Positions 3,854 through 27,415 of a stretch of 64,000 nt of DNA are shown here, piece after piece; position 1 is the first letter of the stretch; every line of letters starts with the position of its first letter. The translations under genes and the position numbers were made by a program. Source of the DNA: Alphaproteobacteria bacterium (lineage in GTDB: Bacteria > Pseudomonadota > Alphaproteobacteria > Rickettsiales > JABCZZ01). The stretch is taken from positions 2,210 to 66,209 of the forward strand of contig JAMIFV010000016.1 of assembly GCA_035906055.1 (NCBI GenBank), in the 5' to 3' direction. Below the pieces are notes generated by a model. That model saw nothing but the letters and a program-made list of their open reading frames with translations. It did no database searches and was not told the DNA's origin.

Positions 3854-3872
3854 CCGGAACCGGGGTAAAGGT

Positions 3873-4235: not shown

Positions 4236-4240
4236 AAGCC

Positions 4241-5494: not shown

Positions 5495-5498
5495 GCAG

Positions 5499-6950
5499 AT
5501 GGCAGCATTCGGCCGGCGCAGTTCGGTGGATAATGCGTCTGCCCCGGCGGGGGCTGGGCCTGTCATACCCGCTGCAAACATGTCGTCTTCCCCGGCTGCT
5601 GCATCCGAGGCGGTGAAGCCGGCGGAAGAGCGCCTGAAGCCGCAGGTGCATGTTGAGGATTCCCCGGCGGATAATGAAAAGCTCAAGGCGCTTACGCAAG
5701 CCAGCGCCACCAAGGATAAGATTTACTCGCTGCTGATGGAGCAGATCGACCTTTCCAGCGCGTCGCGCCTTCCGCGCCCGGACCTGAAGCGCCAGATCAT
5801 CGACCTGATCGGTGAGATCGTGATGGAGCAGAAACTGCTCATCAACCAGACCGAGCAGCAGATGCTGGCCAACCAGATCGTGGACGACATGCTCGGCCTC
5901 GGCCCCCTTGAGCCGTTGCTGCAGGACGAGACCATTACGGATATCATGGTCAACGGCCCCAATCAGGTTTATGTGGAGCAGAAAGGCAAGCTGCGCCTGA
6001 CGGACGTGAAATTCCGCGATAACGGCCATGTAATGGCCATCGCCCAGCGCATCGTGACGGCGATCGGCAGGCGCGTGGACGAATCCAGCCCCATATGCGA
6101 CGCGCGCCTTATGGACGGCAGCCGCGTGAACGTGATAGCGCCGCCCCTTGCCATTCGCGGCTGCAGCGTCTCCATACGTAAATTCTCCAAGAAGAAGATC
6201 ACGCTGGATATCATGGCGTCGCAGAAGAATATCTCCGACAATCTCTGCAAGGTGCTGAAAATAGCCGGGGCGATACGCCTGAATATCATCATCTCCGGCG
6301 GTACGGGTTCGGGTAAAACTACCCTGCTTAACGCGCTCTCGCAGATGATCGACCACGGTGAGCGTATCGTGACCATTGAGGACGCCGCCGAGTTGCAGTT
6401 GCAGCAGCCCCACGTGGTGCCGCTGGAAACAAGGCCCGCCAACCTCGAAGGCGAGGGCGAAATCACCATGCGCGATCTTGTGAAGAACGCGCTGCGTATG
6501 CGGCCTGACCGTATTATCCTTGGCGAGGTGCGCGGCGCGGAATGTATTGATCTTCTGCAGGCCATGAACACGGGCCATGACGGTTCTTTCGGCACGCTGC
6601 ACGCCAACAGCCCGCGAGAAGCGCTCACGCGTATGGAAAACATGGTGGGCATGGCGGGCATCAACCTGCCCAGCAAGGCCGTGCGCACGCAGATAGCCAG
6701 CGCCGTGAACCTTATCGTGCAGATCAGCCGCATGCGCGACGGCATCCGCCGCATTACCCACGTTACCGAGCTGGTGGGCATGGAAGGCGACGTGATCGTG
6801 ACGCAGGATCTATTCCATTTTGAATTTCAGGGCGAAGATGAAAAAGGCAAGCTGGTGGGCGAGTTCAAATCCACCGGCCTGCGCCCCAACTGCATTGCGC
6901 AGGCAGCCTATTACGGCCTCGATAAAGCGTTGCTGGAGGCCATGGGATGA
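5499..6950 (+). CDS. cpaF: Tad secretion ATPase CpaF/TadA
   Basis: 483 aa. Walker A ISGGTGSGKTTLLNAL, RIILGEVRG, and His box GHDGSFGTLHANS. Confidence 0.95.
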   Translation: MAAFGRRSSVDNASAPAGAGPVIPAANMSSSPAAASEAVKPAEERLKPQVHVEDSPADNEKLKALTQASATKDKIYSLLMEQIDLSSASRLPRPDLKRQIIDLIGEIVMEQKLLINQTEQQMLANQIVDDMLGLGPLEPLLQDETITDIMVNGPNQVYVEQKGKLRLTDVKFRDNGHVMAIAQRIVTAIGRRVDESSPICDARLMDGSRVNVIAPPLAIRGCSVSIRKFSKKKITLDIMASQKNISDNLCKVLKIAGAIRLNIIISGGTGSGKTTLLNALSQMIDHGERIVTIEDAAELQLQQPHVVPLETRPANLEGEGEITMRDLVKNALRMRPDRIILGEVRGAECIDLLQAMNTGHDGSFGTLHANSPREALTRMENMVGMAGINLPSKAVRTQIASAVNLIVQISRMRDGIRRITHVTELVGMEGDVIVTQDLFHFEFQGEDEKGKLVGEFKSTGLRPNCIAQAAYYGLDKALLEAMG

Positions 6951-7858
6951 TATCCGCCATCCTGGGCAGCAAAGTAAGCGCAAAACGCATGGCAAGGGTG
7001 ACCCGCCGCCGGTCAACTGCCGTTGAGCGTTCATTCGACGCGCTCAGCTTGCGCCGCAAGGCGAAGGGCAGCTCCATCCCCGGACTCAACAAGCTGTTCA
7101 GCGGCTTTGAGCTTACGGCATCCCTGCGTGCCAAACTGGAGCGCGCGGGCATGAGTATCGGCGCGGAAATGTTTATCACGCTGTGCGTGTCTATTATCGT
7201 TGCGTTCGTGCTGCTGTTCGTGCTGCTCAAGAAAAAGATTATTATCGGCGTGGCGCTGGGCCTGTTCTTCGGGTTCCTGGTGCCGAGGTTTATCGTGAAC
7301 TTCCGCGCCAACAAGCGCATCAAGAAGTTCCTCATATTGTTCCCCGACGCGATCGATTTTATCGTGCGCGGCCTGCGCTCCGGCCTTCCGGTATCGGAAT
7401 CCATGAACATGGTAGGCAAGGAAATGGAACAGCCCATCGCGGGCATATTCGCCGATATAGGTGAATCGGTGAAACTGGGCGTCTCGCTGGAAAAAGCGCT
7501 GCAGGACACGGCAAAAAGGCTGAAATCCACGGAGTTCAACTTCTTCACCACCACCATCATCCTGCAGAGGGAAACAGGCGGCAATCTTTCGGAGATCCTC
7601 AACAACCTCGCCGATGTGCTGCGCAAGCGCTACATGATGCGCATGAAGATCAAGGCGATGTCTTCCGAAGCCAAGGCTTCGGCGATGATCGTGGGCTCGT
7701 TGCCGTTCATCGTTATCGCCGCGCTTACGTTCGTGGCGCCCGACTACCTGACGCCGCTGATAGAAACTTCCAGCGGCAATATCGCCGCCGGGTGCGCAGC
7801 GCTCAGCCTTACGCTTGGTATCACGATCATGATCAAAATGTCGCAGTTCGAGATATAG
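6947..7858 (+). CDS. tadB: Tad inner-membrane platform protein TadB (T2SS F family)
   Basis: 303-aa polytopic protein. ATGA overlap with the cpaF stop; T2SSF-like layout. Confidence 0.8.
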   Translation: MISAILGSKVSAKRMARVTRRRSTAVERSFDALSLRRKAKGSSIPGLNKLFSGFELTASLRAKLERAGMSIGAEMFITLCVSIIVAFVLLFVLLKKKIIIGVALGLFFGFLVPRFIVNFRANKRIKKFLILFPDAIDFIVRGLRSGLPVSESMNMVGKEMEQPIAGIFADIGESVKLGVSLEKALQDTAKRLKSTEFNFFTTTIILQRETGGNLSEILNNLADVLRKRYMMRMKIKAMSSEAKASAMIVGSLPFIVIAALTFVAPDYLTPLIETSSGNIAAGCAALSLTLGITIMIKMSQFEI

Positions 7859-7872
7859 GGGGCACCTTCCAG

Positions 7873-8841
7873 ATGTTTTCAAACCTGCTCGTAGGATTGC
7901 CAGTAGACTCCGCCATGTTCCTGTTCGTGGCGGTTATCACGATCATCGTGGTGTGGTTCTTCATCAAAAACGTGCTGCACCATAACAAGTTTGCCACCCG
8001 CGTGAAAGCACTGCAGGAACGCCGCACACAGTTGCGTGCCGAACTGGTCAACACCCGCAAGCGCACGCGCAGGCAACAGGCCCCGGTGGGCATGGGCATG
8101 ATGCGCGCCGTGGTGAACAAGTTCAACCTTCTGCAGAAATCGCAGGTCGGCAAGATCAATCATATGCTCATCAACGCGGGCTACCGTTCCAAGGACGCCA
8201 TCTTCATCTATGCGTTCTTCCAGCTTGTGCTGCCCATCTTCTTCCTTGTGATCGCCATTATCATCTCCAAGATTGATTTCTCCCAGCCGTTTGCTGTGAA
8301 GTGGAGGCCCCTGTTTGTGCTAGGCTCGGCCTATCTCGGCCTGAAGCTGCCCAGCATCCTTGTGCTCAACGCGCGCAACAAGCGCTATTATGAAGTTCAG
8401 AAGTCGCTTTCCGATACGCTTGACCTGCTCATGATCTGCGCGGAAGCGGGCTTAAGCCTTGCCGCCGCGCTGGACAGGGTATCGCGCGAATTGATGCTGG
8501 CCTATCCCGAAATGGCCGAGGAACTCATGCTCACCTCTATCGAGATAGGCTTCCTGCCGGACAGGAAGAAGGCGCTGCAAAACCTTGCGGAGCGTGTGGA
8601 TATGCCGGAAATACGAAACATTGTGGGCGTGCTTATCCAGACGGAGAAATACGGCACGCCGATCGCTCAGGCGCTGCGCGTGCTGGCCGCCGAATTCCGC
8701 ACTGCGCGCATGCTGCGCGCCGAACAGAAAGCGGCAAGGCTGCCTGCCATCATGACCGTGCCGATGATCATATTCATCCTGCCGACACTCTTTATAGTGG
8801 TGCTGTCACCCGCGCTTATACGCGTCTCGCATAATATGTGA
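7873..8841 (+). CDS. tadC: Tad inner-membrane platform protein TadC
   Basis: The track ORF opens at 7792. The ATG at 7873 (MFSNLLVGLP) follows the tadB stop. Polytopic, T2SSF-like (CAEAGLSLAAALDRV). Confidence 0.8.
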   Translation: MFSNLLVGLPVDSAMFLFVAVITIIVVWFFIKNVLHHNKFATRVKALQERRTQLRAELVNTRKRTRRQQAPVGMGMMRAVVNKFNLLQKSQVGKINHMLINAGYRSKDAIFIYAFFQLVLPIFFLVIAIIISKIDFSQPFAVKWRPLFVLGSAYLGLKLPSILVLNARNKRYYEVQKSLSDTLDLLMICAEAGLSLAAALDRVSRELMLAYPEMAEELMLTSIEIGFLPDRKKALQNLAERVDMPEIRNIVGVLIQTEKYGTPIAQALRVLAAEFRTARMLRAEQKAARLPAIMTVPMIIFILPTLFIVVLSPALIRVSHNM

Positions 8842-10678: not shown

Positions 10679-12697
10679 TTAGTTGTTTGCCGCAAGCGGC
10701 GCGCTGGAATGTTTCTTATCAATCTGCTGCACCGCGAAAGCAAACACATCGTCCGCATCCATGTACGACGTATCGATCTGTATCGCGTCGTCGGAAGGAA
10801 CCAGCGGCGCTGCCGCGCGCGTGGAATCGCGCTGGTCGCGTTCGCGCAGGTCTTCGAGCACGGAGCTGTATACTACTTCTATGCCCTCGCCCTGCAATTC
10901 GCGGTGGCGGCGGTCGGCGCGTGTTTCAAGGCTGGCGGTGATGAAGAACTTCACGTCGGCATCCGGGCAGACCACGGTGCCGATATCCCTGCCGTCCAGC
11001 ACGGCGCCTTTGCCGCTGGCGGCGAAGTTGCGCTGGAAGTCGAGCAATACGGCGCGCACTTCTGGTATGGCGGAAATGACTGAAGCCGCGTTACCCACGC
11101 GCTCCTGCCGCAGGCGCGGGTTGGTGAGGTCATTTTCGGTCAGGTCGCGCGCGGCGTCGATGGCAGCCTGTTTGTCGTAAGGGTCTTTCTCGGAATAGAC
11201 CAGCTTCAACCCCACCGCGCGGTAAAGGCTGCCTGTGTCGAGGTAGGGGATATCGTAATGCTCGCTGATGCGGCGTGCGAGCGTACCTTTGCCGGAAGCG
11301 GCGGGGCCGTCCACCGCAACGACAAAACTTTTTTTCGCCGTGTTCACTACGGCTGAATGCACAAGGCTTATCCTGGCACCTGCATTGTTGAACAGTTCCG
11401 CAAAGCTGGGGAAGCTGGTGGCGATGGCGGTGGTGTCGTCCACTTCCACGGGGTTTTCACTGGCCATGCCCATCACGAGGAAACTCATGGCGATGCGGTG
11501 GTCGAAATGGGTTTTAATAATTCCGCCGCCCACCGGGTGCCGGTTGCCGTGAACAATCAGCGTATCACCCTGAATCTCGGAGCTTACGCCGCAGGCCAGC
11601 AGCCCGTCATGCACCGACTGCAGGCGATTGCTTTCTTTGACCTTCAGTTCCGCAAGGCCGTGCATGGTGGTAGTGCCGCTGGCAAAGCTCGCCGCCACGG
11701 CGAGTATGGGGTATTCGTCGATCATGGAAGGCGCTACATGCGCGGGCACGTCCACACCGCGCAATGTGCTGTGACGCACCTGCAGGTCGGCAACTTCTTC
11801 ACCTGCGCTGATGCGCTTATTAAGGTAGGTTATGGATGCACCCATCTGCTGCAGCACGGTGAACAGGCCGGTACGCAGCGGGTTGATGCATATGTTGGGG
11901 ATGGTGATGTCAGAGCCCGCAACGATAAGCGCGGCAACGACCGGGAAGGCGGCGGAAGAGGGGTCAGACGGTACGAGCAGGTGCCGTTCCGCGCGCTCAA
12001 TCTTCTGATGGCCGTTGACGGAAATGACGGTGCCTCTGGCTTTGTCGTGTTCCACCGATACTTGCCAGCCGAAATGGCGCAGCATGCGTTCGGTATGGTC
12101 GCGCGTGGCTTCGGGCTCGATAACGGTGGTGGTGCCTGCGGTGTTGAGGCCCGCAAGCAGAATGGCGGACTTTACCTGCGCCGAAGCGACGGGCAGGGTG
12201 TAGCTGATGGGCATGGGACTGGCTGTGCCGGTAACGGCGGCGGGCAGTTTGCTGCCTTCGCGGGTTTCCACATGTGCGCCGATCTGTTCAAGCGGGGTTA
12301 TCACGCGCTTCATCGGGCGGGAGCGCAGGCTGTCATCGCCGGTGAAAAACACGCGGAACGGATAAGTGGAAACCAGCCCCATCAGCAGCCTTGTGCTGGT
12401 GCCGGAATTGCCCATGTCTAAAATATTGGCAGGTTCGCAAAGCCCGCCAGCCCCCACTCCATGGATGCACCAGCGGCCTGAGAGGTCTCGGGTCACGGTA
12501 ACGCCCATCTGGCGCAATGCCTCGGCGGTGCGCAGCACGTCTTCCCCTTCGAGCAGTCCTTCTATTGTGGTTCTGCCTAATGCCTGTGAGGAAAGGATGA
12601 GGGCGCGGTGCGAGATGGATTTATCGCCAGGCACGGCGATTTTTCCGCGGAAACTGGTGGCTTTGAGCGATCGTGCCGGTAGGGGGGGATGGTACAT
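10679..12697 (-). CDS. aroA: Bifunctional EPSP synthase / cytidylate kinase (AroA-Cmk fusion)
   Basis: The N-terminal part carries PGDKSISHRALILSSQA and LGNSGTSTRLL (AroA). The C-terminal part carries VAVDGPAASGKGTLARRI and DGRDIGTVV (Cmk). One uninterrupted ORF. The start at 12697 (MYHPPLPARSLK) is preferred over the track start at 12763. Confidence 0.9.
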   Translation of the reverse strand: MYHPPLPARSLKATSFRGKIAVPGDKSISHRALILSSQALGRTTIEGLLEGEDVLRTAEALRQMGVTVTRDLSGRWCIHGVGAGGLCEPANILDMGNSGTSTRLLMGLVSTYPFRVFFTGDDSLRSRPMKRVITPLEQIGAHVETREGSKLPAAVTGTASPMPISYTLPVASAQVKSAILLAGLNTAGTTTVIEPEATRDHTERMLRHFGWQVSVEHDKARGTVISVNGHQKIERAERHLLVPSDPSSAAFPVVAALIVAGSDITIPNICINPLRTGLFTVLQQMGASITYLNKRISAGEEVADLQVRHSTLRGVDVPAHVAPSMIDEYPILAVAASFASGTTTMHGLAELKVKESNRLQSVHDGLLACGVSSEIQGDTLIVHGNRHPVGGGIIKTHFDHRIAMSFLVMGMASENPVEVDDTTAIATSFPSFAELFNNAGARISLVHSAVVNTAKKSFVVAVDGPAASGKGTLARRISEHYDIPYLDTGSLYRAVGLKLVYSEKDPYDKQAAIDAARDLTENDLTNPRLRQERVGNAASVISAIPEVRAVLLDFQRNFAASGKGAVLDGRDIGTVVCPDADVKFFITASLETRADRRHRELQGEGIEVVYSSVLEDLRERDQRDSTRAAAPLVPSDDAIQIDTSYMDADDVFAFAVQQIDKKHSSAPLAANN

Positions 12698-12853
12698 TGC
12701 AAGAAAAGGTTGACTAAAAATTAATAAATTATAACGTGTTAATGCAGTATATTGGTAGTGCAAATGATACGGAAATTGAATAATATAAAAACTCGATTAT
12801 ACCTATACTGACGGAAAAACAATAATAATAGTCTATTACAGGGAGCCTCTATT

Positions 12854-13358: not shown

Positions 13359-16268
13359 TTGACTATGACAGAAAAAGAACGCTTTGCACTTACCAGGCAG
13401 GATAAAAAGCTCATGGTCGGGGGGCTGGGACTGGTGCTGCTGGCGCTGACCCTCTTTCTGACATTACCGGCGCTTGTGGACACTAACGCGATCCAGAACC
13501 AGATCAAAACTTCTTTTAAAGCGTCCACCGGCCTTGACCTTGAGATACAGGACGGAGTGGAAGTCAGCATTTTTCCGTCGCCGCATGTGGTACTCAAAAA
13601 CCTCTATGTCGCCAACATTCCCGGCGCTTCATCCTCATTCCTCCTGTCCATCCGCACGATGGACATGAAATTGCAGACCACGTCGCTGTTCAGTGCCAAT
13701 CCTGCAGCGGACAGCATAACGCTTGACGGGGTCGTCATACAGATAGAACGCATGAAAAGCGGGCGGTTCAACTGGCAGGAGATCAGGCAATATATAGCCA
13801 ATAATGCGGTGAAAGACGCGGGAGAATCTCCCAAGATGGAGATCATCAGCAATGACGACGTGGGCCAGTTGGCGCTTGCCCGCCAGTTTGTGGATTTAGA
13901 CAGCCTTGTGCAGGGGCTTATCAAAGTATCCAACATCAGGGTGCAGGACGCGGAGTTGCATTATACGGACGGCCCGGCAGGCATCATAACGCATTACAAC
14001 GACATCGGGTTTGATTTCTTCAATAACCGCAGCGCCAAAACCGCCACGCTGACGGGAGGCCTTTATTACGGCGACTTTCCGGCAAGCATCAATGTTGAAC
14101 TTAACGATATCGAAGCATCGTATAAGCTCAAGACCACCACCGTTAAATTTCGTCTGGAGTCGGAACAGACCGCCTTTGAATATGAGGGCGATATCGGTTT
14201 CTCCGACACGCTGAGCATGAGGGGTAAAACAGTATTCCACTCCCCCAACCTTGCGCAGTGGGTCAAGCTTCTGAATGAAAAAGCCGGCGTAACAGTGAAG
14301 CTGCCAGCGAATGCCAGGCCCATCCCGGTTAAACTAAGCAGCAATGTGACGACTGAAGGCAAGAACATCCAGTTGCCTGAGATACTCGTGGAAGGTGGCA
14401 TTTTTAGCGGCAAGCTGGCTGCTATCATCAAGCCGCCTGCGAATATTGAGATCAAGGGTACGCTTGACAGTGTGGATATGGACAGCATCGTGGAGAGCGG
14501 GCTTTTCGCATCCGGGCAAGCTGTAAAGCAGGATAAGAAGTCCAGCAAAGATGACAGCAGCTCGGTTGCGCTCAACATGCTCGCGCAGAAGTCTTTCTGG
14601 AGTTATATCACCATCGGTGTCAGCGTGAAAGTAGCCGATGTAAGCTATAACAAGCAGAGGATCAAAAAAGGCCTTATCGAGTTTGACATGGCCGACGGCG
14701 ACATGGCGATCTCGCAGATATCCGGTTCATTCCCCGGCGAATCCAAGCTGCTCTTCACGGGGCTGGGCAAGGAAAGCTATCAGGGCTTCATGGTCGACGG
14801 CCAGCTTGACGGTTCCGGCGAGAATTTCGTGGATCTTATTTCGTTCTTCCGTACCGGTGGCACGACGTCATTGCCCAAGGATTTTAAACGTTTCCGTTTT
14901 AAGACCAATATGGTGCTCTCCAGCAAGGAGCTGCGCCTGACGGAACTATCCTCCCGCGTGGAAAACATGGCGTTTGTGGGAGGCGTTATCACCACGTTCG
15001 AGGATATCACAAAGGTGCAGGCCGCTATACGCATGGGGGGCGTGGATGTCGACCGCCTGATGCAGTCATGGGGCGTCAACAAGTTCATCGACAGCCTTTA
15101 TAACGAGGATATGAATACCGTAAAGGCAGATGATGAACTTTCGCGGTGGCTCAGGACTGCCGACTACGAGCTGGATGTACGAGTCTCCGCCGAGCAGTTC
15201 ACGCTGCATGGCAAGCAACAGGAAAAAGGCAAGATCCGTGTGGCCGTCACCAAGAACAGGCTGATGCTTACCGAACTTGAAGTGCTGTACGACGGCACAC
15301 AGTTCGGCGGTAAGGCCTCGCTGGATGTGGTAGGCAAGCTGCCCTATGTCGACATGGATATTTCCATGGATACGTTAGACCTGACCTCGAAAGCCGGGCA
15401 GAGGAACTGGGTATTCGATACAAAATCCGGCGGAGCGTCGGAAAAAGGCAAACGCATCTGGTCGCGCGAAGGCATCAGCTTCAGCTGGATGGATTTTCTT
15501 AATGCTACCCTGCATTTCAGGATTGGGCATATCAAGAACGGTGATTTTGAAGTCTCGTCACTGGATATTAAAGCGGCCATTGAAGACAGGACGCTGAACG
15601 TACCTACTCTTTCCGGTAACCTGATGGGCGCGCAGTTCACGGGCAAGGGCTTTATCAAGAACGGGCAAATTCCCACGCTTTCGCTCACGGGCGATCTTGT
15701 GGGCCTGGATGTCAACTACCTGACCGGCTTCATGCCAGCTCTTGCCGGGCTTTCGGGCAGGGTAAACTCGCAGCTTCGCGTCCATACCAGCGGTATCGAC
15801 GTCTATACGTGGCTCTACAACGCGCAGGGTACCGTCTTGTTATCGTCAAGGGATGCCACAATCGACGGCTTTAACCTTCCGGGCATTGTGAATGCGGTAG
15901 GCTATGTGCGCACGGTGGCGGACATTCTGGACGCGGTGAAAAGGGCATTCCCCGGCGGCAGCACGGTGTTCGACTCGATGGACGGAGAAATGACGCTGAG
16001 CAACGGCGTGATGAGAGTGCCGACCAGCGTCCTGAGGAACGACTTTGCCGAAGGCGAGTTCACCGGCCAGATCGACCTTATAAATTGGAAGATGGTGGGC
16101 AATCTCATGCTTGCCATCACCTACCTCGACAGGGTAACGCCGCCGAAAATGGCTATCAGCTATCGCGGCAATCTTGACGAGATAGAGAAAGAGCTGGATA
16201 CGAGCCTTCTTGAGCAGTACGTGGCGAACAAGACCTCGGAAAAACTGTTACAGTCCAACGAACAGTAA
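13359..16268 (+). CDS. AsmA-family envelope protein
   Basis: 969 aa with a single N-terminal TM (LGLVLLALTLFLTLPALV). Long beta-rich body, with C-terminal segments typical of AsmA-like proteins. Confidence 0.6.
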   Translation: MTMTEKERFALTRQDKKLMVGGLGLVLLALTLFLTLPALVDTNAIQNQIKTSFKASTGLDLEIQDGVEVSIFPSPHVVLKNLYVANIPGASSSFLLSIRTMDMKLQTTSLFSANPAADSITLDGVVIQIERMKSGRFNWQEIRQYIANNAVKDAGESPKMEIISNDDVGQLALARQFVDLDSLVQGLIKVSNIRVQDAELHYTDGPAGIITHYNDIGFDFFNNRSAKTATLTGGLYYGDFPASINVELNDIEASYKLKTTTVKFRLESEQTAFEYEGDIGFSDTLSMRGKTVFHSPNLAQWVKLLNEKAGVTVKLPANARPIPVKLSSNVTTEGKNIQLPEILVEGGIFSGKLAAIIKPPANIEIKGTLDSVDMDSIVESGLFASGQAVKQDKKSSKDDSSSVALNMLAQKSFWSYITIGVSVKVADVSYNKQRIKKGLIEFDMADGDMAISQISGSFPGESKLLFTGLGKESYQGFMVDGQLDGSGENFVDLISFFRTGGTTSLPKDFKRFRFKTNMVLSSKELRLTELSSRVENMAFVGGVITTFEDITKVQAAIRMGGVDVDRLMQSWGVNKFIDSLYNEDMNTVKADDELSRWLRTADYELDVRVSAEQFTLHGKQQEKGKIRVAVTKNRLMLTELEVLYDGTQFGGKASLDVVGKLPYVDMDISMDTLDLTSKAGQRNWVFDTKSGGASEKGKRIWSREGISFSWMDFLNATLHFRIGHIKNGDFEVSSLDIKAAIEDRTLNVPTLSGNLMGAQFTGKGFIKNGQIPTLSLTGDLVGLDVNYLTGFMPALAGLSGRVNSQLRVHTSGIDVYTWLYNAQGTVLLSSRDATIDGFNLPGIVNAVGYVRTVADILDAVKRAFPGGSTVFDSMDGEMTLSNGVMRVPTSVLRNDFAEGEFTGQIDLINWKMVGNLMLAITYLDRVTPPKMAISYRGNLDEIEKELDTSLLEQYVANKTSEKLLQSNEQ

Positions 16269-16421: not shown

Positions 16422-17687
16422 ATGCTGACCCACACGCGCGATGCAGAAACCAAGCTGGTTGACACCATGAACGGGCTTGCCGACGAGGCTCCCAGCTGGC
16501 GCGGTGTGTATTTCCGTTTTGAGCAACTGCTGGAGCAATACCGCAGCGACTACCAGATACAGATAGCGGTCAACCTGCTCAACGACCTGCTTACCACCAA
16601 TCAGGGCGGGGTGTTCGTCTGCTATGACCGCAGCATTATTCTGCTGTGCCGCAATGTGACGCGCAACAAATTGGAAAAGGCCATATTCCAGTTGCGCTAC
16701 CTGTTCATGGACGATCCGCTGGCTTATGACGCATCCGGCGATGAGAATCCAAATTTCTGCCGCGTGTATGATCTCGGCGTGGAATTCGCCGAGCTTTTCC
16801 AGTTATGCCGCAAGAAACATTCCCAGAGTGCGCAGGGCGACCACGCGAAAGAAAGCGCCGTGGCGTCCGTGCAGCCGCAGGGCAGGGAAGAGCCCGTGCA
16901 CAGCGCGGCAGCGGGGACGAAGCCGCCATCGGGCAAGCTGACGCTTACTCCCACGAAGCTCGCCCATATTGAACATGATCTTTACAAGGCCGACCTTAGC
17001 CGCGTATTCAGGCGCCAGCCTGTATGTGCTGTTACCATGGACATGAATACGCGCATGGTGTTCGACGAGTATTACATCCATATAGCGCATCTGCGACAGA
17101 TGTTGCATACCGACACGGACCTGCTGGGCAATCGCTGGCTGTTCAAATACCTGACCCAGTTGCTCGACGAACGCATGCTCGACATGCTGATGCTCACGCC
17201 GATGCGTTATTTCGATAAGCCGCTGAGCCTTAATTTCAATATTGAAACGCTGCTGTCGAAAAAATTCATCGAGTTCGACTCCACCATCAAGCTTATCATC
17301 AAGGTGCCGGTGGTCATTGAGATACAGGTGGGCGATGCTTTCTCCGACCTTGCAGGCTTCATGGCCGCGCGCAATATTCTTGAGCGCCTTGGCTACAAGA
17401 CCTGCCTCGACGGCGTAACCGGCTTCAGCATGATGCAGATAGACCGCGAAAAACTGGGGGTAGACCTTATCAAACTGCAATGGAATGCAGATCTGGAAGG
17501 GGATGCGAATAAAGTGGAGAACCGCCCCCTGAAGCGCGCCGTGGAGATTGCCGGAAGCGGGCGTGTTATACTCTGCCGCTGCGACACGAGGCAGGCAGTC
17601 AGCTATGGACAGGCCATGGGAATAAATTTATTTCAGGGCAGGTACATAGACCGGTTGGTTAATCCGAATCAGAAAGTAGAAAATTGA
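16422..17687 (+). CDS. Degenerate EAL-like protein (possible degenerate GGDEF-like N-terminal half)
   Basis: The C-terminal half follows EAL topology, but key motifs are altered: EYY for EAL, LDGVTG for DDFGTG, KLQ for KID, CRCDT for EGVE, QGRYI for QGY.F. The N-terminal half has a GGDEF-like beta-alpha-beta pattern with YDRS at the GGDEF position. Confidence 0.45.
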   Translation: MLTHTRDAETKLVDTMNGLADEAPSWRGVYFRFEQLLEQYRSDYQIQIAVNLLNDLLTTNQGGVFVCYDRSIILLCRNVTRNKLEKAIFQLRYLFMDDPLAYDASGDENPNFCRVYDLGVEFAELFQLCRKKHSQSAQGDHAKESAVASVQPQGREEPVHSAAAGTKPPSGKLTLTPTKLAHIEHDLYKADLSRVFRRQPVCAVTMDMNTRMVFDEYYIHIAHLRQMLHTDTDLLGNRWLFKYLTQLLDERMLDMLMLTPMRYFDKPLSLNFNIETLLSKKFIEFDSTIKLIIKVPVVIEIQVGDAFSDLAGFMAARNILERLGYKTCLDGVTGFSMMQIDREKLGVDLIKLQWNADLEGDANKVENRPLKRAVEIAGSGRVILCRCDTRQAVSYGQAMGINLFQGRYIDRLVNPNQKVEN

Positions 17688-18400
17688 TGGAATGGGCGAG
17701 TACGTTACAGGGGATCATCATTTCCGGCTTCATGGGGCTTGTTGCGGGCAACTTTGCCACCAGCCCCATTTTCCGCCTGCCGCGCAAAGAGTCGTTGTTT
17801 GGCCGCGACCCCTATTGCGGCGATTGCAACGCCATGCTGCAGCCCAGGGATCTTTTCCCGGTGCTGTCATGGCTTTCCACCAAAGGTAAATGCCGCTATT
17901 GCGGCGCGCCGGTGCCGGGCGCTTATACCTTCGCGGAGGCAGTAATCGCGGTATTGTTCGTGGTGTTCTTCCTGCAGCATGGTTTTTCGGAAACCTTCAT
18001 GCTGCTTTCCTTCAGCAGCGCCACGCTGATAGCGCTGGCGATGATGCTCTATATTGATAACTATTTTTCTGACCGGACGTTCGGCCTTGTGCTGGCGCTG
18101 GGGGCGGTATACCGGACGCTGACGGAGGCCACCATCTATGGCTTTGCCGGGGGCGTGTTCGCAGGCCTCATGCTGGGTGGGGCCATATGGAAACTCTCCA
18201 AAAAACCCATGGCGCGCGACTTCGGCGCTTTCCCGCCTTATATTAAGCTGCTGATAGCGTGCGCAGGGCTGCTGACCTTTCCGAAGTTCCTGGCCATCAT
18301 GCCGATATGCGCCTTTGCGGCGCTGGTAAGGGATCAGAAAAAATGGCTGCCGGAATATGCCATTATCGGCAGCACCATTGCCGTGCTGCTTGCAGCTTAA
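17687..18400 (+). CDS. PilD-type prepilin peptidase-like membrane protein
   Basis: N-terminal CGDC...CRYC Zn-finger segment with PVLSWLSTKGKCRYCGAPV, as in the DiS-P-DiS domain. Polytopic, with an IDNYFSD first-Asp region. Its ATG overlaps the upstream TGA (TGATG). Confidence 0.7.
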   Translation: MEWASTLQGIIISGFMGLVAGNFATSPIFRLPRKESLFGRDPYCGDCNAMLQPRDLFPVLSWLSTKGKCRYCGAPVPGAYTFAEAVIAVLFVVFFLQHGFSETFMLLSFSSATLIALAMMLYIDNYFSDRTFGLVLALGAVYRTLTEATIYGFAGGVFAGLMLGGAIWKLSKKPMARDFGAFPPYIKLLIACAGLLTFPKFLAIMPICAFAALVRDQKKWLPEYAIIGSTIAVLLAA

Positions 18401-18433: not shown

Positions 18434-19183
18434 TCATTCACACGTCACGACAAGCGTATAGTTGTCTTCCGCGTTGCCCAGCGTCACCGTGTTATGGCCA
18501 ATTGCCAGTGGCGCGATGTAAAGCCCATAACCACGCCCGATGATCGTATCGTTTACCTTGGTGCCGAAGCGGCTGCCGAGGTCCACTATTACCAGTGCGC
18601 CGTCTTCTATCGCTATCTCGCAGTGCTGACGTGATACCCTTAAGGGAGAGGGCTGCGCTGCGATGGACAGATGCACCATGTCGCGTTTGTTAGCTTCGCC
18701 GCCCTCCGGGTAACCGCCAATGCGGTAAGGCAGGTTGGCAAGGGGCACGCTCACCGGCTTGAATATGTCTTTTATGCGGTCGCCATGCGGGGCGATCCTG
18801 ATGGATTTAATGCTGGTGTTGATAGCCATTTCCGCCTTGGGTTTGGACTTCACCTTACCCAGTTTCATGCGTTCACCCATCATGGTGAACAAAGCCTGCA
18901 TGGACTGCGGCGCCTTATCGATAACGGCTTTGAATTCTTCCGGCGTAATGGCAACGATCGTGCAGGCTTCCAGCGCCCTGGCGGAATAAGGGCGAAGCGC
19001 AAGCGCATCAAAGATTGCCAGTTCACCGAATACTTCGTTCTCATTTACGGTGCGGATGGTGCTGGTCTGCCCACGGTCAGTCTGGTAAAGCTGCACTTTA
19101 CCCGCAATAAGGCAGTAAGCGGTATCAGGAGTATCGCCTTCCTGAAAAATCACAGCGTCTTTCTCAACGGTCTTCTGTGTCAT
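18434..19183 (-). CDS. Cyclic-nucleotide-binding domain plus FHA domain protein
   Basis: cNMP-binding features: VIFQEGDTPDTAYCLIAGKV and FGELAIF...RPYSARA. C-terminal FHA features: VSRQHCEIAIEDGALVIVDLGSRFGTKVND. Confidence 0.75.
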   Translation of the reverse strand: MTQKTVEKDAVIFQEGDTPDTAYCLIAGKVQLYQTDRGQTSTIRTVNENEVFGELAIFDALALRPYSARALEACTIVAITPEEFKAVIDKAPQSMQALFTMMGERMKLGKVKSKPKAEMAINTSIKSIRIAPHGDRIKDIFKPVSVPLANLPYRIGGYPEGGEANKRDMVHLSIAAQPSPLRVSRQHCEIAIEDGALVIVDLGSRFGTKVNDTIIGRGYGLYIAPLAIGHNTVTLGNAEDNYTLVVTCE

Positions 19184-23207: not shown

Positions 23208-25256
23208 ATGGAGACAGTTATGCATAAGCATCTATTTGCATTGCTCGTAATGACGACGGCGCTAACGGCAGTTCCCGTGCAAGGGCGTGCTGCTGATGAA
23301 ACGCCTTCGCAGGATACGGATATGCTTAACCTGTCCCTGCAGCAATTGTCTGATATCGAAGTGACCTCCGTATCCAAACGTTCGGAAAAAGCTTCGCAGG
23401 CCGCTGCGGCTATTTATGTTATCACGCAGGAAGACATCAGGCGTTCGGGATTGGAAAATGTGCCAGAACTGCTACGCATGGTGCCCGGTCTTCAGGTGGC
23501 TAAATCCGGCTCACAGAACTGGGTGGTGACCTCGCGCGGCTTCGCCAGCCAGTTCGCCAATAAGCTGTTGGTGCTGATAGACGGCAGGACGGTATACACC
23601 CCGGTATTCTCAGGCGTGTTTTGGGATTCCCACAACCTGATGCTTGAGGACATCGAGCGCATTGAGGTGATTCGTGGCCCGGGCGCCACTTTGTGGGGGG
23701 CAAATGCCGTAAACGGTGTGATCAACATTATTACCAAGAACGCAAAAGACACGCAGGGCAGTCTGGTTTCGGCAGGTGCGGGCAATCAGCAGCGTGCCAA
23801 GGCAGCTGGCCGTTATGGCGGCCAGCAGGGCGAGATGTCATACCGTGCCTATGCACAATACGTTAACCATGGCGAAGAAAAGCTGCTTTCAGGCGCTGAG
23901 GCCAATGATGATTGGTATAACATGCAGGGCGGCTTCCGCTTTGACTGGAATACTTCTGAAAAAGAACAGAAGACCCTTCAGGGCGATGTGTATAAAGCAC
24001 GCGAAGGCGCCAAGCGCTATCTACCGGTGACGTCTGCCGTTTCCTCCAGTTTCGGTCGTGAGGTAGACGATCGTGACAGCGCCAGCGGCGCTAACATCCT
24101 CGGGCGTTGGAAACATGAATTGAACAAGGGGTCTGATATCTCGCTACAGGCGTATTATGACGATGTGCGCAGGGATTTCGGTGAAGTGGGCGCAAGCATG
24201 CACACGCAAACCGTTGACATGGATTTCCAGCATAATTTAAAGTTGAGCCAGCGCCACGATATTACCTGGGGTATTGGCTACCGTTTTATTCGCAGCGGCT
24301 ATACGAACAGCTTTTACATTGGCTACGTGCCGGAAGACTTCAATTCCAATCTCTTCAGCAGTTTTATCCAGGATAAAGTAACACTAATTCCTGACGAGCT
24401 TTATTTTACATTCGGTACCAAGCTTGAGCATAACGGCTTCAGCGGGCTGGAATATGAACCCAGCGCACGTATGGCGTGGACGCCTACCGGCAACCAGACC
24501 ATATGGGCTTCCGTGTCGCGTTCCATTCGTGCGAAAACCCAGTCCGATGAGAATCTGCGGCTGGTGGCGGCGGGCTTTGCCACGCCCTCGCCGTATAACG
24601 TGATTGCCGACAGCACGTTGCTGGTGCAGGAGGGCGATTATGGCACCGAATCGGAAGAGGTGATAGCCTATGAGCTGGGTTACCGTATTCAGCCGGTTCC
24701 AAACGTATCGGTGGATATGACCGCCTTCGTGAATGAATACAAACGTCTTGCGTCATTCTCCTATGGCGACGCCACGCTGAAGAATGATCCTTTCCTTGGC
24801 GATTATCTGTATCAGCCGCTCATCAGTGAGAATAACAGCCACGGCGAAACGCACGGCTTTGAAGCCGCCGCCACGTGGGAGGTCACTCCCAGTGTAAAGC
24901 TGAGCGGCGGGTATACGCTGTTCTATTCAAACCTGAAGATCACGGGCGCAAGCCTCGTGACGGCAGAAGGCACAAGCCCTACCCAGCAGATTAATTTCAG
25001 GTCGTATATGGACCTGCCCTACGACTTCCAGTGGGATAACATGCTCTATATCGTCGATCCGGTTCCGGGTAAGGGCGTCAAGTCCTATACCCGTTATGAT
25101 ACACGCATCGGCTGGGTGCCCATACAGGGGCTGGACTTGAGCATAGTAGGCCAGAATCTTCTGGAAACCGATCATCAGGAATATAGCGGATTTCTCTACC
25201 AGGACGCTGAAAAGATCGGTAGAAGCGTGTTCGCCAAAGTCACAGCCAGGTTCTAG
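23208..25256 (+). CDS. TonB-dependent outer-membrane receptor
   Basis: Signal peptide and plug motifs (IEVTSVSKRSEK, AAAIYVITQEDIRRSG, IERIEVIRGPGATLWGANAVNGVINIITK). C-terminal aromatic residue (ARF). Confidence 0.9.
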   Translation: METVMHKHLFALLVMTTALTAVPVQGRAADETPSQDTDMLNLSLQQLSDIEVTSVSKRSEKASQAAAAIYVITQEDIRRSGLENVPELLRMVPGLQVAKSGSQNWVVTSRGFASQFANKLLVLIDGRTVYTPVFSGVFWDSHNLMLEDIERIEVIRGPGATLWGANAVNGVINIITKNAKDTQGSLVSAGAGNQQRAKAAGRYGGQQGEMSYRAYAQYVNHGEEKLLSGAEANDDWYNMQGGFRFDWNTSEKEQKTLQGDVYKAREGAKRYLPVTSAVSSSFGREVDDRDSASGANILGRWKHELNKGSDISLQAYYDDVRRDFGEVGASMHTQTVDMDFQHNLKLSQRHDITWGIGYRFIRSGYTNSFYIGYVPEDFNSNLFSSFIQDKVTLIPDELYFTFGTKLEHNGFSGLEYEPSARMAWTPTGNQTIWASVSRSIRAKTQSDENLRLVAAGFATPSPYNVIADSTLLVQEGDYGTESEEVIAYELGYRIQPVPNVSVDMTAFVNEYKRLASFSYGDATLKNDPFLGDYLYQPLISENNSHGETHGFEAAATWEVTPSVKLSGGYTLFYSNLKITGASLVTAEGTSPTQQINFRSYMDLPYDFQWDNMLYIVDPVPGKGVKSYTRYDTRIGWVPIQGLDLSIVGQNLLETDHQEYSGFLYQDAEKIGRSVFAKVTARF

Positions 25257-25270
25257 GGAAAGTCAGCATC

Positions 25271-25885
25271 GTGTCATACGCACATAAACATGGCTGGTCT
25301 GCATGTCTGCGCGAAACGGTTTCACGCGCGGGCCGGATGCTGTGCGCCATGTCGCTGCTCGTGCTGGTGTCGTTTTCCAGCACCGATGCGCAGGACGCCA
25401 GCGCCCTCAAGGTTGCCAAGGTAAAAGCGGCATTCCTCTATAACTTCATCAAGTTCGTGGAATGGCCGCAGCGCTCTCCTGCCGACACCCAGAAAGCTAC
25501 CATCTGCATCGCAGGCAGCCATCCGTTCGAGAATGCGCTGGATACGCTTAAATCGCAGCTTGCAGGCAAAATAGAACTTACCATAGCCATGAATGCGGAT
25601 GCCTCTGCACTTGGAAACTGCAATATCCTGTTCATCGGCACGGGCGCGCCCGACAGCATCGCCGAATTCATATCGCAGGCGAAGAAGCAGAATGTGCTCA
25701 CCGTAAGCGAAAGCAATGACTTTGCTGACAAGGGCGGCGTAATAGAAATGAAGACGGTGGAAAAGGCGATCGGCCTGTTCTCCTCGAACAAGATCAACCT
25801 CAGGGTCAACCTGAAGGCGGCGGAGGCTTCGTCACTGCGCATCAACGCGCAGCTGCTTGAGATCGCCGCGGAGGTAATCAAATGA
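25271..25885 (+). CDS. YfiR/DUF4154-like periplasmic protein
   Basis: VKAAFLYNFIKFVEWP motif plus a signal-like N-terminus. Start uncertain (GTG at 25271 or a later ATG). Confidence 0.7.
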   Translation: MSYAHKHGWSACLRETVSRAGRMLCAMSLLVLVSFSSTDAQDASALKVAKVKAAFLYNFIKFVEWPQRSPADTQKATICIAGSHPFENALDTLKSQLAGKIELTIAMNADASALGNCNILFIGTGAPDSIAEFISQAKKQNVLTVSESNDFADKGGVIEMKTVEKAIGLFSSNKINLRVNLKAAEASSLRINAQLLEIAAEVIK

Positions 25886-25903
25886 CGAAGGGAGGCGCAG
25901 GCA

Positions 25904-27415
25904 GTGTTTTCTAGCGGTTCGATAAAGCAGCGCCTTACCCTGCTTATTACCGCCGTCAGCGCCATTGCGGTGCTGCTGACCACGCTCGCGCTGACATTCA
26001 TCGACGTTTACAACCTCAAGGGCAACCTTGTGTCGGAGCTTGAGGTTACTGCCAAGGTGGTCGGCGAGCGCAACAAGGCGTTTATCAGCTTCGGTGAAGT
26101 GGAGCTGGCGCATGACAACCTGAAGATATTCACCAGCAAGCCCTCGATTGTGCTGGCATGCCTTTATAACGATCAGGGAAAGGTGTTTGCCGGTTACGCA
26201 CCTGACAATCACGATGAAACCTATGCATTCTGCCCGTCGGTGACGGATGCTCCTTCCACCGTAAAAAAAGGCAATGTGCGTTACGTCCATCAGCTCGATA
26301 GCGGCAACCTGCCGGTGGGGTATATCCTCATGGAATCCGACCTGAAGGAAATACCCGACTATATCAGCAGGCAGGTGGTGATAGCGTTACTGGTGGTCGT
26401 CGTGTTCAGCGGTGTGGCTTATGGCTTCGCATTGGCCGTGCAGCGCAGCATCTCCGGTCCGATTCTCGGTCTTGCCGATACGGCACGCAGGGTATCCAAC
26501 CAGAAAGACTACGCGTTACGCGCCGAGCAGGGGGGGGCTGAGAGTTCGGACGAAATGCGCACGCTTGTGGCTGCGTTCAATTCCATGCTTGATGAGATAC
26601 AGACGCGTGACCACCAGCTCCAGCGCAAGAATGAGGAACTGGGCAAAGCCAAGGAATTCGCGGAAGGCGCCAACCGCGCCAAATCGCATTTCCTTGCTAA
26701 TATCAGCCATGAACTGCGCACGCCCCTGAATGCTATTATCGGATTCTCGTCCATTCTCATCAATCAGCTTTTCGGCCCGCTGGGGCATGCCAAATATGGC
26801 GAGTATTCCAAGGACATCAACGAAGCGGGTGTGCACCTGCTCGATATCATCAACGATATTCTCGACCTTTCCAAGGCCGAAGCGGGCAGGTTGCAGATGG
26901 TGTTTGAGGACGTGTTCATCGAGCGCGCCATTAATAAGTGCATCTCTATTACCTCGGAACGCTCTTCGGAAGCAGGCGTTACTATCAGTACGGATATTCC
27001 CCGGGGGCTGCCACCTATCATGGCTGACCGCCTGCGCTTTATCCAGATCATGCTCAACGTGCTTTCCAACGCGGTTAAATTTACGCCCAGAGGCGGAAGC
27101 GTGCATATTACGGTCAATACGCAGTCACGCGGCAGCCACGTGACGGACTTCGTCATCAGCGTGCGTGATACCGGCATCGGCATGTCGCAGGAGCATATTG
27201 AGAAGGCGTTCCAGAGTTTCGGCCAGATCGATAGCGACCTCAACCGCAAATACGAAGGCACCGGCCTCGGCCTGCCGCTCACCAAGAAGCTGGTGGACCT
27301 GCATCATGGCAGCATACGCATCCAGAGTGAGCTCAATGTCGGCACGATGGTGGAATTGCATTTTCTTGCCAATCCCGTGCCCGTGAACGACCTGATCGAC
27401 CGCGGCCCGATTTGA
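25904..27415 (+). CDS. Sensor histidine kinase (two TM segments, HAMP, HisKA, HATPase)
   Basis: H-box SHELRTPLNAIIGFS and G-boxes DTGIGM and GTGLGLPLTKKLV. No response regulator gene is adjacent. Confidence 0.85.
   Translation: MFSSGSIKQRLTLLITAVSAIAVLLTTLALTFIDVYNLKGNLVSELEVTAKVVGERNKAFISFGEVELAHDNLKIFTSKPSIVLACLYNDQGKVFAGYAPDNHDETYAFCPSVTDAPSTVKKGNVRYVHQLDSGNLPVGYILMESDLKEIPDYISRQVVIALLVVVVFSGVAYGFALAVQRSISGPILGLADTARRVSNQKDYALRAEQGGAESSDEMRTLVAAFNSMLDEIQTRDHQLQRKNEELGKAKEFAEGANRAKSHFLANISHELRTPLNAIIGFSSILINQLFGPLGHAKYGEYSKDINEAGVHLLDIINDILDLSKAEAGRLQMVFEDVFIERAINKCISITSERSSEAGVTISTDIPRGLPPIMADRLRFIQIMLNVLSNAVKFTPRGGSVHITVNTQSRGSHVTDFVISVRDTGIGMSQEHIEKAFQSFGQIDSDLNRKYEGTGLGLPLTKKLVDLHHGSIRIQSELNVGTMVELHFLANPVPVNDLIDRGPI

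Follow-up and report, generated by a model that had tools for sequence, protein, structure and literature searches.

Two overlapping genes in the 64,000-nucleotide stretch of alphaproteobacterial DNA analysed here (the window) raise the question of whether a prepilin peptidase has come under the control of a second-messenger receptor. The initial annotation had read the upstream gene (ORF A) as a degenerate GGDEF/EAL protein with the architecture of LapD or FimX and the downstream gene (ORF B) as a PilD-type peptidase with an atypical active site, and had proposed that the pair controls, or replaces, prepilin processing for a tad locus about 8 kb away. All motifs on which this reading was built are present at their places in A and B, and the features are collected in Table 1. 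The reading that we prefer, tentatively and with somewhat less than even confidence, is that A and B are a conserved module of two translationally coupled pseudoenzymes that acts as a membrane-anchored signalling pair.

Table 1. Features of the A-B locus, with positions in the window and the basis of each assignment.
Feature	Position	Strand	Description	Basis
AsmA-family gene	13359..16268	+	Upstream context; link frequent, not universal	Pfam AsmA, 136.5 bits
ORF A	16422..17687	+	421 aa, cytoplasmic degenerate GGDEF-like and EAL-like protein	ORF list, AF2, Foldseek
A, N-terminal domain (aa 1-147)	16422..16862	+	Minimal GGDEF-like beta-alpha-alpha-beta-beta-alpha-beta fold, long helix at the end	
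A, YDRS (aa 68-71)	16623..16634	+	Turn of beta-hairpin E62-66/E72-77, position of the GGDEF motif	Predicted structures
A, FQLRYLFMDDPLAY (aa 89-102)	16686..16727	+	Most conserved stretch of the A family; end of helix alpha3 and next loop	
A, EAL-like domain (aa 177-415)	16950..17666	+	Catalytic positions substituted	Sub-threshold Pfam match, Foldseek
TGATG	17685..17689	+	One-base overlap of A stop and B start	Sequence TTGATGGAA
ORF B	17687..18400	+	237 aa, polytopic membrane PilD paralogue without the peptidase dyad	
B, A24_N_bact (methylase) domain (aa 17-98)	17732..17977	+	Methylase domain	Pfam PF06750 (IPR010627), 75.8 bits
B, C4 zinc finger	17816..17902	+	CGDC-X21-CRYC, G68-K69 ahead of Cys3	Motif positions
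B, YIDNYFSD (aa 123-130)	18050..18073	+	Region of the first catalytic Asp	Gapless alignment with canonical PilDs
B, ARDFGAFPPYIKLL (aa 177-190)	18212..18253	+	Degenerate GxGD(V)KLL site	Alignment with canonical PilDs

The stop codon of A (TGA, 17685-17687) and the start codon of B (ATG, 17687-17689) have one base in common (TTGATGGAA), which confirms the overlap noted initially. In the ORF list B begins at a TTG at 17684, giving the 238-aa numbering used for all residues of B in the motifs and alignments below, and the public gene call (P0219) starts at the ATG at 17687 and gives 237 aa. With start codons picked heuristically, 36 of the 64 listed B homologues begin within -1 to +5 nt of the stop of A. 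No natural A-B fusion was found among the homologues of A; two long matches considered as fusions were rejected, one (P0287) having an acidic low-complexity tail and the other (P0230) carrying the A module twice in tandem. In the 64-kb window neither an Rfam nor a tRNA scan gave a match, c-di-GMP riboswitches included, and a promoter and terminator scan gave sites not above the level of shuffled sequences, with the gap between AsmA and A empty.

The N-terminal part of B is PilD-like, as had been claimed on the basis of its paired CxxC motifs. CGDC (45-48) and CRYC (70-73) have a spacing identical to that of the PilD zinc finger, CXXC-X21-CXXC (PMC3584216). C45, C70 and C73 are found in all 64 members of the B family, and C48 in 56, the remaining eight being without it. 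A Gly and a basic residue before the third Cys contribute to methylation in PilD (PMC3584216); in the B family, position 68 is Gly in 47 of the 64 members and His in 14, and position 69 is Lys or Arg in 59. The residues G18, G22, R31, P33, C45, C48, D56, P59, C70, R71, C73 and E85 of B are invariant along with canonical PilDs, and the N-domain is better conserved than the membrane half (45% against 22% identity). Because the peptidases of Tad (T4c) systems lack the methylase N-domain that is typical of T4a and T2SS peptidases (PMC10191384) and B has it, B is, judged by its sequence, of the PilD type and not of the Tad type.

The peptidase half of B, with about 7-8 hydrophobic segments in the protein, is degenerate. 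Pfam gives no Peptidase_A24 (PF01478, IPR000045) match in B at E<=1, and precomputed Pfam assignments list PF06750 alone in all of the about 62 clusters of the close B family, whereas the canonical PilDs of the same search carry PF01478 and PF06750. Homology to canonical PilD members covers 62-79% of the length of B, and the C-terminal PFGP motif is absent. YIDNYFSD had been taken as the region of the first catalytic Asp. A gapless alignment sets L122 against the canonical Asp, and D125, three residues downstream, could be equivalent after a shift. The catalytic residue is not conserved there, the D125 column containing Asp in 9 of the 64 family members and Glu, Gln or His in the others. For the second Asp, the initial annotation had left open D179 or a loss. 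Alignment with PilDs finds no intact GxGD Asp, since FPPYIKLL of B stands against GLGDVKFL of canonical PilDs with Y186 at the catalytic position; the second Asp is lost, and D179 is kept in just six of 64. Among the 64 A-linked B proteins this column is Trp in 22, Tyr in 20 and Asp in none. In the subclade of the window itself, IDNFFSD and RD..AFP.Y.KLL are both conserved.

Because neither catalytic Asp is kept across the A-linked B family, its conserved function cannot be aspartyl proteolysis, and the alignments indicate that B cannot be an ordinary prepilin peptidase. B is nevertheless not a decaying gene, because its ORF length is kept across 64 genomes and dN/dS is low in both halves (for two unsaturated pairs, the N-domain gives 0.09-0.13 and the membrane domain 0.15-0.23). 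B-type proteins are named "prepilin peptidase" in public records, and this name is probably wrong.

A belongs to a large family of uniform length, with 846 homologues in a word-indexed search and 586 cluster representatives at 50% identity and E<=1e-30. Its AF2 model (mean pLDDT 88.6) has two domains and a disordered linker (aa 144-170); the maximum 19-aa hydropathy is 1.44, and both the TM-periplasmic-HAMP module of the LapD type and the REC-PAS module of the FimX type are absent. When the full model was compared with PDB by Foldseek, GGDEF-EAL dual-domain structures matched at E 3e-12 to 1e-9 (at the top MorA 4rnf at 3e-12, LapD 3pjw, RbdA, V. cholerae LapD and DosP) and EAL-only structures ranked below them, which agrees with the receptor architecture initially assigned to A. 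Searching PDB sequences with profiles of the two proteins turned up no solved relative of relevance and, for A, no EAL chain; CTCF zinc fingers and ApRick (E about 0.8) were chance matches.

The C-terminal domain of A has the TIM-barrel-like EAL fold. It matched the EAL domains of FimX, YahA, MorA, LapD, BifA and PA3825 with E between 1e-8 and 1e-6 and a target TM of about 0.55-0.63, including the FimX EAL structures 3hv9 (1.6e-8), 4fok and 4j40. Pfam also sees the EAL homology of A, below its cut-off (PF00563, 24.6 against 31.3 bits, E 1.9e-5), and a PF00563 match is on record for many homologues. The motifs quoted initially as catalytic substitutions lie at 215-218 (DEYY), 329-334 (LDGVTG), 351-353 (KLQ) and 385-389 (CRCDT). 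Kept are Q199-P200, E216, N271, E300, D330, K351 and Q405; replaced are the Arg of EALxR (H220), the second Asp of DD (G331), the Asp of KxD (Q353) and the general-base Glu of EGVE (R386). The substitutions in the C-terminal half were placed by profile-profile alignment to the canonical EAL family, in which hhalign gave a probability of only 30% and aligned the C-terminal half alone, and the residues of the N-terminal half were assigned by motif reading rather than by a scored alignment. The catalytic substitutions are invariant or nearly so in 42 diverse homologues, so that the initial claim of an EAL topology with a substituted active site stands. Since several residues that read as metal-site and substrate positions are kept and residues needed for hydrolysis (G331, Q353 and R386) are replaced, A is most likely noncatalytic, serving as a nucleotide receptor or a scaffold and not as an enzyme. 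The Arg of EALxR touches a c-di-GMP phosphate in known EAL receptors; because this position is His220 in A, and Asn or His across the family, ligand binding is uncertain.

The N-terminal domain of A is a much reduced GGDEF-like domain of about 120 aa plus a helix. Modelled alone (pLDDT 91.7, pTM 0.84), it has GGDEF domains, PelD and LapD among them, in 40 of its top 50 PDB matches, each of them weak (E 0.03-0.2, TM 0.35-0.47), and Pfam finds no GGDEF (PF00990) match in A. The hairpin reads C-YDRS without a GG(D/E)EF motif, and D69 is kept in at least 90% of the sequences; direct reading of the sequence finds no RxxD I-site five residues upstream of YDRS. The predicted fold and the place of YDRS at the hairpin turn are in keeping with the GGDEF-like assignment that had been made for this half. 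In FQLRYLFMDDPLAY, the residues F89, Q90, R92, Y93, L94, D97, D98, P99, L100 and Y102 are invariant across 42 sequences, and the variants RLRYLFRDDP and RLRFLVPDDP are still found in distant members. The C-terminal tail of A (...NPxxKVEN) occurs throughout the close lineage, whether B is next to A or not, and is missing in distant members; as a marker of the presence of B it was rejected, showing no correlation with adjacency.

Co-occurrence of the two genes, which had been suggested as a check, is strong. Of 74 evaluable genome loci centred on A, 65 have B as the next gene downstream, and an independent metagenome scan centred on B found A immediately upstream in nine of ten B-family loci; canonical PilDs of that scan are never found with A. 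The adjacency extends over A identities of 41% to 63%, and it is the most persistent one at the locus, compared with AsmA ahead of A in 45 of 80 loci and glmS in 38 of 80 (the housekeeping neighbours aroA-cmk and glmS are syntenic in 35-38 loci); in 17 loci A-B is kept without AsmA. All carriers are uncultured Alphaproteobacteria, and because these genomes are related, shared descent adds to the synteny. About nine loci of the same lineage have A without an adjacent B, one locus (L100) has B without A, and more distant A-family members occur without any B, with a RegB/RegA-like two-component system, a LapG-like peptidase or T1SS genes as neighbours; an adjacent B is therefore not a strict requirement for A.

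The tad locus lies at 1437-8841, about 8 kb upstream of A, with about 8.8 kb and five genes between the operon and B. It had been described as lacking its own peptidase and pilin genes, and this is true of the whole 64-kb window, in which no gene for Flp or a type IV pilin and no canonical GxGD motif was found; a relative with the same arrangement agrees, having no Flp or A24 gene in the 10 kb preceding the tad operon or within the operon up to aroA. A canonical EAL gene adjoins the tad operon. Among the genomes examined, tad is near A-B in the window and one close relative only; the neighbourhood was examined with 10-kb flanks in three genomes, and tad was not near A-B in L096 and L097, whose A proteins are 59% and 52% identical. 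A tblastn search for tad within 6 kb on either side of A (80 loci) is uninformative because the tad locus of the window itself is 8 kb away. The proposal that A-B controls or replaces tad prepilin processing is not borne out, since the dyad is not conserved, B is of the PilD type, the proximity to tad is not conserved and distant A proteins occur without B. The data do not support A-B as a component dedicated to the tad locus nearby.

What the pair may do instead can be outlined from its parts. A would be a soluble cytoplasmic protein, most likely a receptor for a nucleotide, probably c-di-GMP or a related one, or else a scaffold. B would be an inner-membrane PilD paralogue of the eight-helix type that has lost its dyad, its membrane body and cytoplasmic C4 methylase domain staying under purifying selection. 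We propose that A docks on the cytoplasmic face of B, and that B would therefore act as membrane anchor and transducer for A, so that the pair would link the second-messenger state to an envelope process without cleaving prepilins. Physical contact between A and B, the identity of the ligand and the output are the parts of this scheme that we infer.

By analogy, the pair may be likened to a LapD-like receptor split over two polypeptides. LapD of Pseudomonas fluorescens and Vibrio cholerae, an inside-out c-di-GMP receptor, has, like A, a tandem of degenerate GGDEF and EAL domains that is noncatalytic by sequence, and LapD dual-domain structures are among the best matches of A (3pjw ranks second, 6pwk and 6pwj fifth to eighth); a membrane function is plausible for A by way of B, and a LapG-like Peptidase_C93 gene stands directly upstream of one distant A homologue. 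A differs from LapD in having 421 aa without TM, periplasmic or HAMP parts, so that a membrane part, if there is one, would have to come from a separate protein derived from PilD, in its much smaller GGDEF-like domain and in the His at the EALxR Arg, and there is no LapG or adhesin gene near A-B in the window. FimX of Pseudomonas and Xanthomonas, a c-di-GMP receptor that governs the assembly of type IV pili, likewise has degenerate GGDEF-EAL domains and shares with A, through the ancestry of B, a thematic tie to the type IV pilus machinery. However, FimX has N-terminal REC and PAS domains and targets the PilB ATPase, directly or via PilZ, rather than a peptidase homologue, and no PilB, PilZ or pilin genes lie beside A-B.

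On the side of B, PilD/GspO/XcpA (MEROPS A24A, peptidase and N-methyltransferase) have in common with it the N-terminal methylase domain, the C4 spacing and the polytopic layout. They differ from B in that its peptidase domain is unrecognised by Pfam, Tyr or Trp stands in place of its GxGD Asp, its first Asp is unconserved and PFGP is missing; B is also not encoded with pilin, T4P or T2SS genes and is coupled to a GGDEF-EAL-like gene. With CpaA/TadV of the Tad (type IVc) systems the likeness is that the tad operon about 8 kb upstream has no peptidase gene, whereas B has the methylase N-domain that Tad peptidases lack (PMC10191384), has no dyad and is not conserved near tad. As an analogy for a protease fold kept for another use, B may be compared with membrane pseudoproteases. 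The iRhoms and Derlins are inactive homologues of rhomboids; as in B, an intramembrane protease fold is under selection after catalytic loss, presumably for binding or scaffolding, although their fold and kingdom are other than those of B.

Three other explanations were weighed against the signalling pair. B might be a stand-alone pilin-type N-methyltransferase acting on pilin-like proteins that another peptidase cleaves, with A gating it through a second messenger. The PilD-identical zinc finger, the Gly and basic residue ahead of the third Cys and the better conserved N-domain (dN/dS about 0.1) speak for this, and the non-Cys residues invariant with genuine PilDs (R31, P33, D56, P59, R71 and E85) would agree with a continuing methylase chemistry no less than with pure anchoring; since Tad peptidases have no methylase domain (PMC10191384), a separate methylase is conceivable. 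Against it, no pilin gene is found in the window or in any locus adjoining A-B, the part of PilD that would position the pilin N-terminus, around the two Asp, is the degenerate part of B, and eight of 64 B proteins lack Cys48 while 14 have His for Gly68. Flp pilins are not known to be N-methylated. The SAM-binding residues of PilD are not defined (PMC3584216). We regard this explanation as unlikely. We consider it rather improbable that there is no partnership at all, A being a solo alphaproteobacterial regulator, B an independent membrane protein and their adjacency an inherited order in one lineage. The distant A homologues beside other genes, the lineage members in which either gene stands alone and the likewise syntenic aroA-cmk and glmS would fit such inheritance, but the A-B adjacency outlasts the others, survives the loss of AsmA, spans the whole range of A identities given above, and joins genes on the same strand that overlap by 1 nt or are at most 5 nt apart in more than half of the listed B homologues.

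The reading of the initial annotation, B as an active atypical peptidase (D125 with D179 or D130) serving tad under c-di-GMP control by A, has in its favour the two motifs conserved in the subclade of the window, the tad operon without flp and cpaA, in the window and within 10 kb upstream of the operon in the relative, and the canonical EAL gene adjoining the operon. We nonetheless judge it very improbable, because PF01478 is not matched and Tyr occupies the GxGD position, because D179 and D125 are rarely kept although the pair is conserved and B is under purifying selection, because B is of the methylase-bearing T4a/T2SS type, unlike Tad peptidases (PMC10191384), and because tad is not near A-B in L096 and L097. 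A broader idea takes in both the preferred signalling pair and the methyltransferase, namely that a GxGD-type intramembrane protease fold has turned into a non-proteolytic partner of a second-messenger receptor, either as a "split LapD", in which B would pass on the nucleotide-bound state of A across or along the inner membrane, or as a nucleotide-gated stand-alone N-methyltransferase; we put it forward as a possibility that is on the doubtful side.

In the literature searched, we found no description of a conserved partnership between a degenerate GGDEF-EAL protein and a PilD paralogue that has lost catalysis. Degenerate GGDEF-EAL proteins are well known as receptors for c-di-GMP, each known one having a different output partner, and the A family, with its 586 representatives, is a sizeable uncharacterised alphaproteobacterial signalling family whose members are called "hypothetical" even in Azospirillum. 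The role of the zinc-finger methylase domain of PilD has been unclear for decades (PMC10191384, PMC3584216). Since B keeps this domain under strong selection and has discarded the protease, it offers a route to study the domain in isolation. If the pair is indeed a split LapD or a gated methyltransferase, B would be the first pseudo-prepilin-peptidase to which a role in signalling is assigned, and it would offer a way into explaining the methylase domain of PilD.

The best-supported reading of ORF A and ORF B is a conserved pseudoenzyme pair. A would be a receptor-type GGDEF-EAL protein, and B, directly 3' of it, would be a PilD paralogue in which proteolysis has been lost while the membrane body and the zinc-finger methylase domain have been kept; we tentatively propose that the two form a putative membrane-anchored signalling complex. 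The initial annotation had described A as a degenerate GGDEF-EAL-type protein and B as PilD-like, and this anatomy proved right: both ORFs are borne out in the ORF listing, and the motifs quoted for them were all found in place by a sequence check. In the ORF listing B begins at TTG 17684, the next codon being the ATG of the public gene call (238-aa numbering is used for its residues), and one base is common to the TGA of A and this ATG ('TTGATGGAA').

Positions of the features and EAL-like catalytic residues of A (window coordinates unless a locus or A residues are named)
Feature	Position	Strand	Remarks
Canonical EAL gene, 5' of tad operon	1-1011	+	clipped by window's left edge
tad operon (cpaB, cpaC, cpaE, cpaF, tadB, tadC)	1437-8841	+	
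EPSP synthase (AroA) + cytidylate kinase (Cmk) fusion	10679-12763	-	single ORF, 694 aa
ORF A	16422-17687	+	421 aa, ORF listing
C-terminal tail of A	17661-17684		residues 414-421
ORF B	17687-18400	+	from ATG, 237 aa, public gene call P0219
cNMP-binding + FHA domain protein gene	18434-19183	-	249 aa, convergent with B
TonB-dependent receptor (Plug), YfiR/HmsC-like DUF4154 protein, CHASE8-HAMP histidine kinase	23208-27415	+	gene cluster
1092-aa ORF	38864-42855	-	weak TPR match only; adjoins CheZ-like phosphatase gene (215 aa)
Platform gene cluster	L096 12410-17179	+	
PilD-like, metagenome contig	L111 2992-3744		
PilD-like, metagenome contig	L133 2965-3834		
Q199-P200, E216, N271, E300, D330, K351, Q405	A residues		invariant; read as canonical EAL metal-site and substrate positions
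H220	A residue		replaced; canonical EAL: Arg of EALxR
G331	A residue		replaced; canonical EAL: second Asp of DD
Q353	A residue		replaced; canonical EAL: Asp of KxD
R386	A residue		replaced; canonical EAL: general-base Glu of EGVE

Homologues of A numbered 846 in a word-indexed search, and, with clustering at 50% identity, an exhaustive profile search yielded 586 representatives at E<=1e-30; nearly all members are 390-440 aa long and align end to end. The Pfam match to EAL was sub-threshold (24.6 bits vs a cut-off of 31.3, E 1.9e-5, aa 243-409), and neither a GGDEF match in Pfam nor any match in NCBIfam was obtained. The AlphaFold2 model (42 homologues as input, mean pLDDT 88.6) has two domains with a disordered linker between them (aa 144-170), and its top PDB matches by Foldseek are tandem GGDEF-EAL structures (MorA 4rnf, 3e-12; LapD 3pjw, 1.2e-11; RbdA 5xgb; V. 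cholerae LapD 6pwk; DosP; PA0575), with the isolated EAL domains of FimX (3hv9, 1.6e-8) and YahA ranking below them. Modelled separately, the N-terminal 150 residues reached a pLDDT of 91.7; their PDB matches are weak (E 0.03-0.2, TM 0.35-0.47), and GGDEF domains occur in 40 of the 50 best-ranked chains, among them the degenerate ones of PelD and LapD. YDRS (residues 68-71) is the turn of a beta-hairpin (62-66/72-77), the position of GGDEF in cyclases. On structural evidence of moderate strength, the N-domain is predicted to be a much reduced GGDEF-like fold. It contains FQLRYLFMDDPLAY (residues 89-102), the most strongly conserved stretch of the whole protein, which distant family members still carry. 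One member, P0230 (712 aa), has the whole module in tandem duplicate, with two GGDEF-like + EAL-like units in a single chain.

Catalytic positions were mapped by motif reading in the N-terminal half of the EAL-like part and, in its C-terminal half, with hhalign, the target being a canonical EAL profile derived from the family of the window's own EAL gene (E 5e-4, probability 30%). Since homologues carry G331 and R386 without exception and Q353 nearly always, the EAL-like pocket appears constrained but not hydrolytic. The tail, ...(I/L)NPxxKVEN-COOH, is conserved, with a near-invariant terminal Asn and a pLDDT of about 41; it is found throughout the close lineage with or without adjacent B, is missing from distant members, and resembles a short linear docking motif.

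B matched the prepilin-peptidase N-terminal domain PF06750 in Pfam (75.8 bits) and gave no Peptidase_A24 match at E<=1. This domain content is shared by each of the roughly 62 clusters in its family, and canonical PilDs from the same query have both domains. In the alignment with canonical PilDs, Y186 stands at the Asp of GxGD (FPPYIKLL vs GLGDVKFL); among the 64 A-linked B proteins this column holds W in 22, Y in 20, other residues in the rest and Asp in none. D179, offered in the initial annotation as a possible second Asp, is present in only six of the 64. The first-Asp region is not conserved in the family, D125 being found in nine of the 64 and lying three residues off the canonical column, and residual peptidase activity of B is very improbable. 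The main rival, itself unlikely, is that B is a stand-alone N-methyltransferase regulated by A. The zinc-finger spacing of PilD, CXXC-X21-CXXC, is identical in B (CGDC-X21-CRYC), G68-K69 directly precedes Cys3, and R31, P33, D56, P59, R71 and E85 are invariant jointly with real PilDs; in PilD, the Gly-basic pair and zinc site are needed for N-methylation and dispensable for cleavage (PMC3584216; PMC10191384). Beyond this domain B has a membrane body, with about 7-8 hydrophobic segments in the protein, and two unsaturated pairs gave dN/dS ratios of 0.09-0.13 (N-domain) and 0.15-0.23 (membrane domain), so the degenerate half is being maintained and is not decaying. The PilD-like proteins of L111 and L133 have an intact Cys4 N-domain, a degenerate GxGD (GFSLRYVKLL in L111, with TDIERLVIPD kept) and no A upstream; protease-dyad loss in PilD paralogues may have occurred more than once.

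That the adjacency of A and B is merely inherited is a less likely alternative as well. The 80 loci of the A-centred scan (one genome per species) are all from MAGs of uncultured Alphaproteobacteria, mostly labelled 'Rickettsiales bacterium'; B is directly downstream in 65 and missing from about nine, and five contigs end too early to judge. Among the 64 B homologues listed, 36 have a spacing between A stop and B start of -1 to +5 nt, and the pair is kept in 17 loci where the upstream AsmA gene is absent. In a second, independent scan of metagenome contigs centred on B, resemblance to B across more than half of its length was confined to the ten best matches; all ten lack GxGD and nine have A immediately upstream, and A was never found beside the canonical PilDs lower in that list. 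Distant A-family members (L083-L085, L087-L091, L093) stand alone without B, and a remote homologue in Azospirillum is annotated 'hypothetical protein'. A RegB/RegA-like two-component system (6TM_PilS-type kinase and roughly 185-aa response regulator) adjoins four of six sampled distant homologues, a LapG-like Peptidase_C93 gene is directly upstream of one, and a type I secretion HlyD/ABC-C39 pair lies beside another.

As the initial annotation had stated, the tad locus is without its own peptidase and pilin genes: flp and cpaA are absent from the operon, and neither Flp nor a type IV pilin nor a GxGD motif was found anywhere in the 64-kb window. The canonical EAL gene (314 aa in the window vs about 351 aa in homologues) occupies the usual place of flp and cpaA. 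The order EAL-cpaB-cpaC-(cpaD)-cpaE-cpaF-tadB-tadC is also present in one close relative, where neither Flp nor A24 genes lie in the tad operon or within 10 kb upstream of it, which suggests a lineage-specific tad operon tied to a c-di-GMP phosphodiesterase, with pilin and peptidase genes elsewhere. The further proposal that A-B controls or replaces Tad prepilin processing was not supported. Near A-B in the two more distant relatives L096 and L097 (A 59% and 52% identical), tad is absent and other genes lie upstream of aroA-cmk: one genome has SPOR and ilvD there, the second rpsA and sppA. The methylase domain present in B is missing from Tad peptidases (PMC10191384).

In L096, about 460 bp separate B from a gene 3' of it for a 400-aa PilC/GspF-like platform protein (T2SSF_N + T2SSF), which is followed by three ORFs of 542, 221 and 392 aa with no Pfam match; no counterpart was found in the window or the other loci searched (L001-L097). 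These genes may be what is left of a type IV filament cluster, or a divergent one, and may point to the ancestry of B. AroA-Cmk is also fused in relatives (674 aa in L097), and L096 has separate ORFs of 500 and 169 aa in its place, adjoining an IS1595-family transposase gene. The cNMP-binding/FHA gene is kept at the same position in only three of 80 related loci, and the TonB-dependent receptor cluster is a YfiR-type periplasmic sensing module with no obvious diguanylate cyclase.

No description of a dead PilD paired with a degenerate GGDEF-EAL protein was found in the literature searched, and both proteins are from known superfamilies. The A-B pair, whose function we only infer, is real and conserved.
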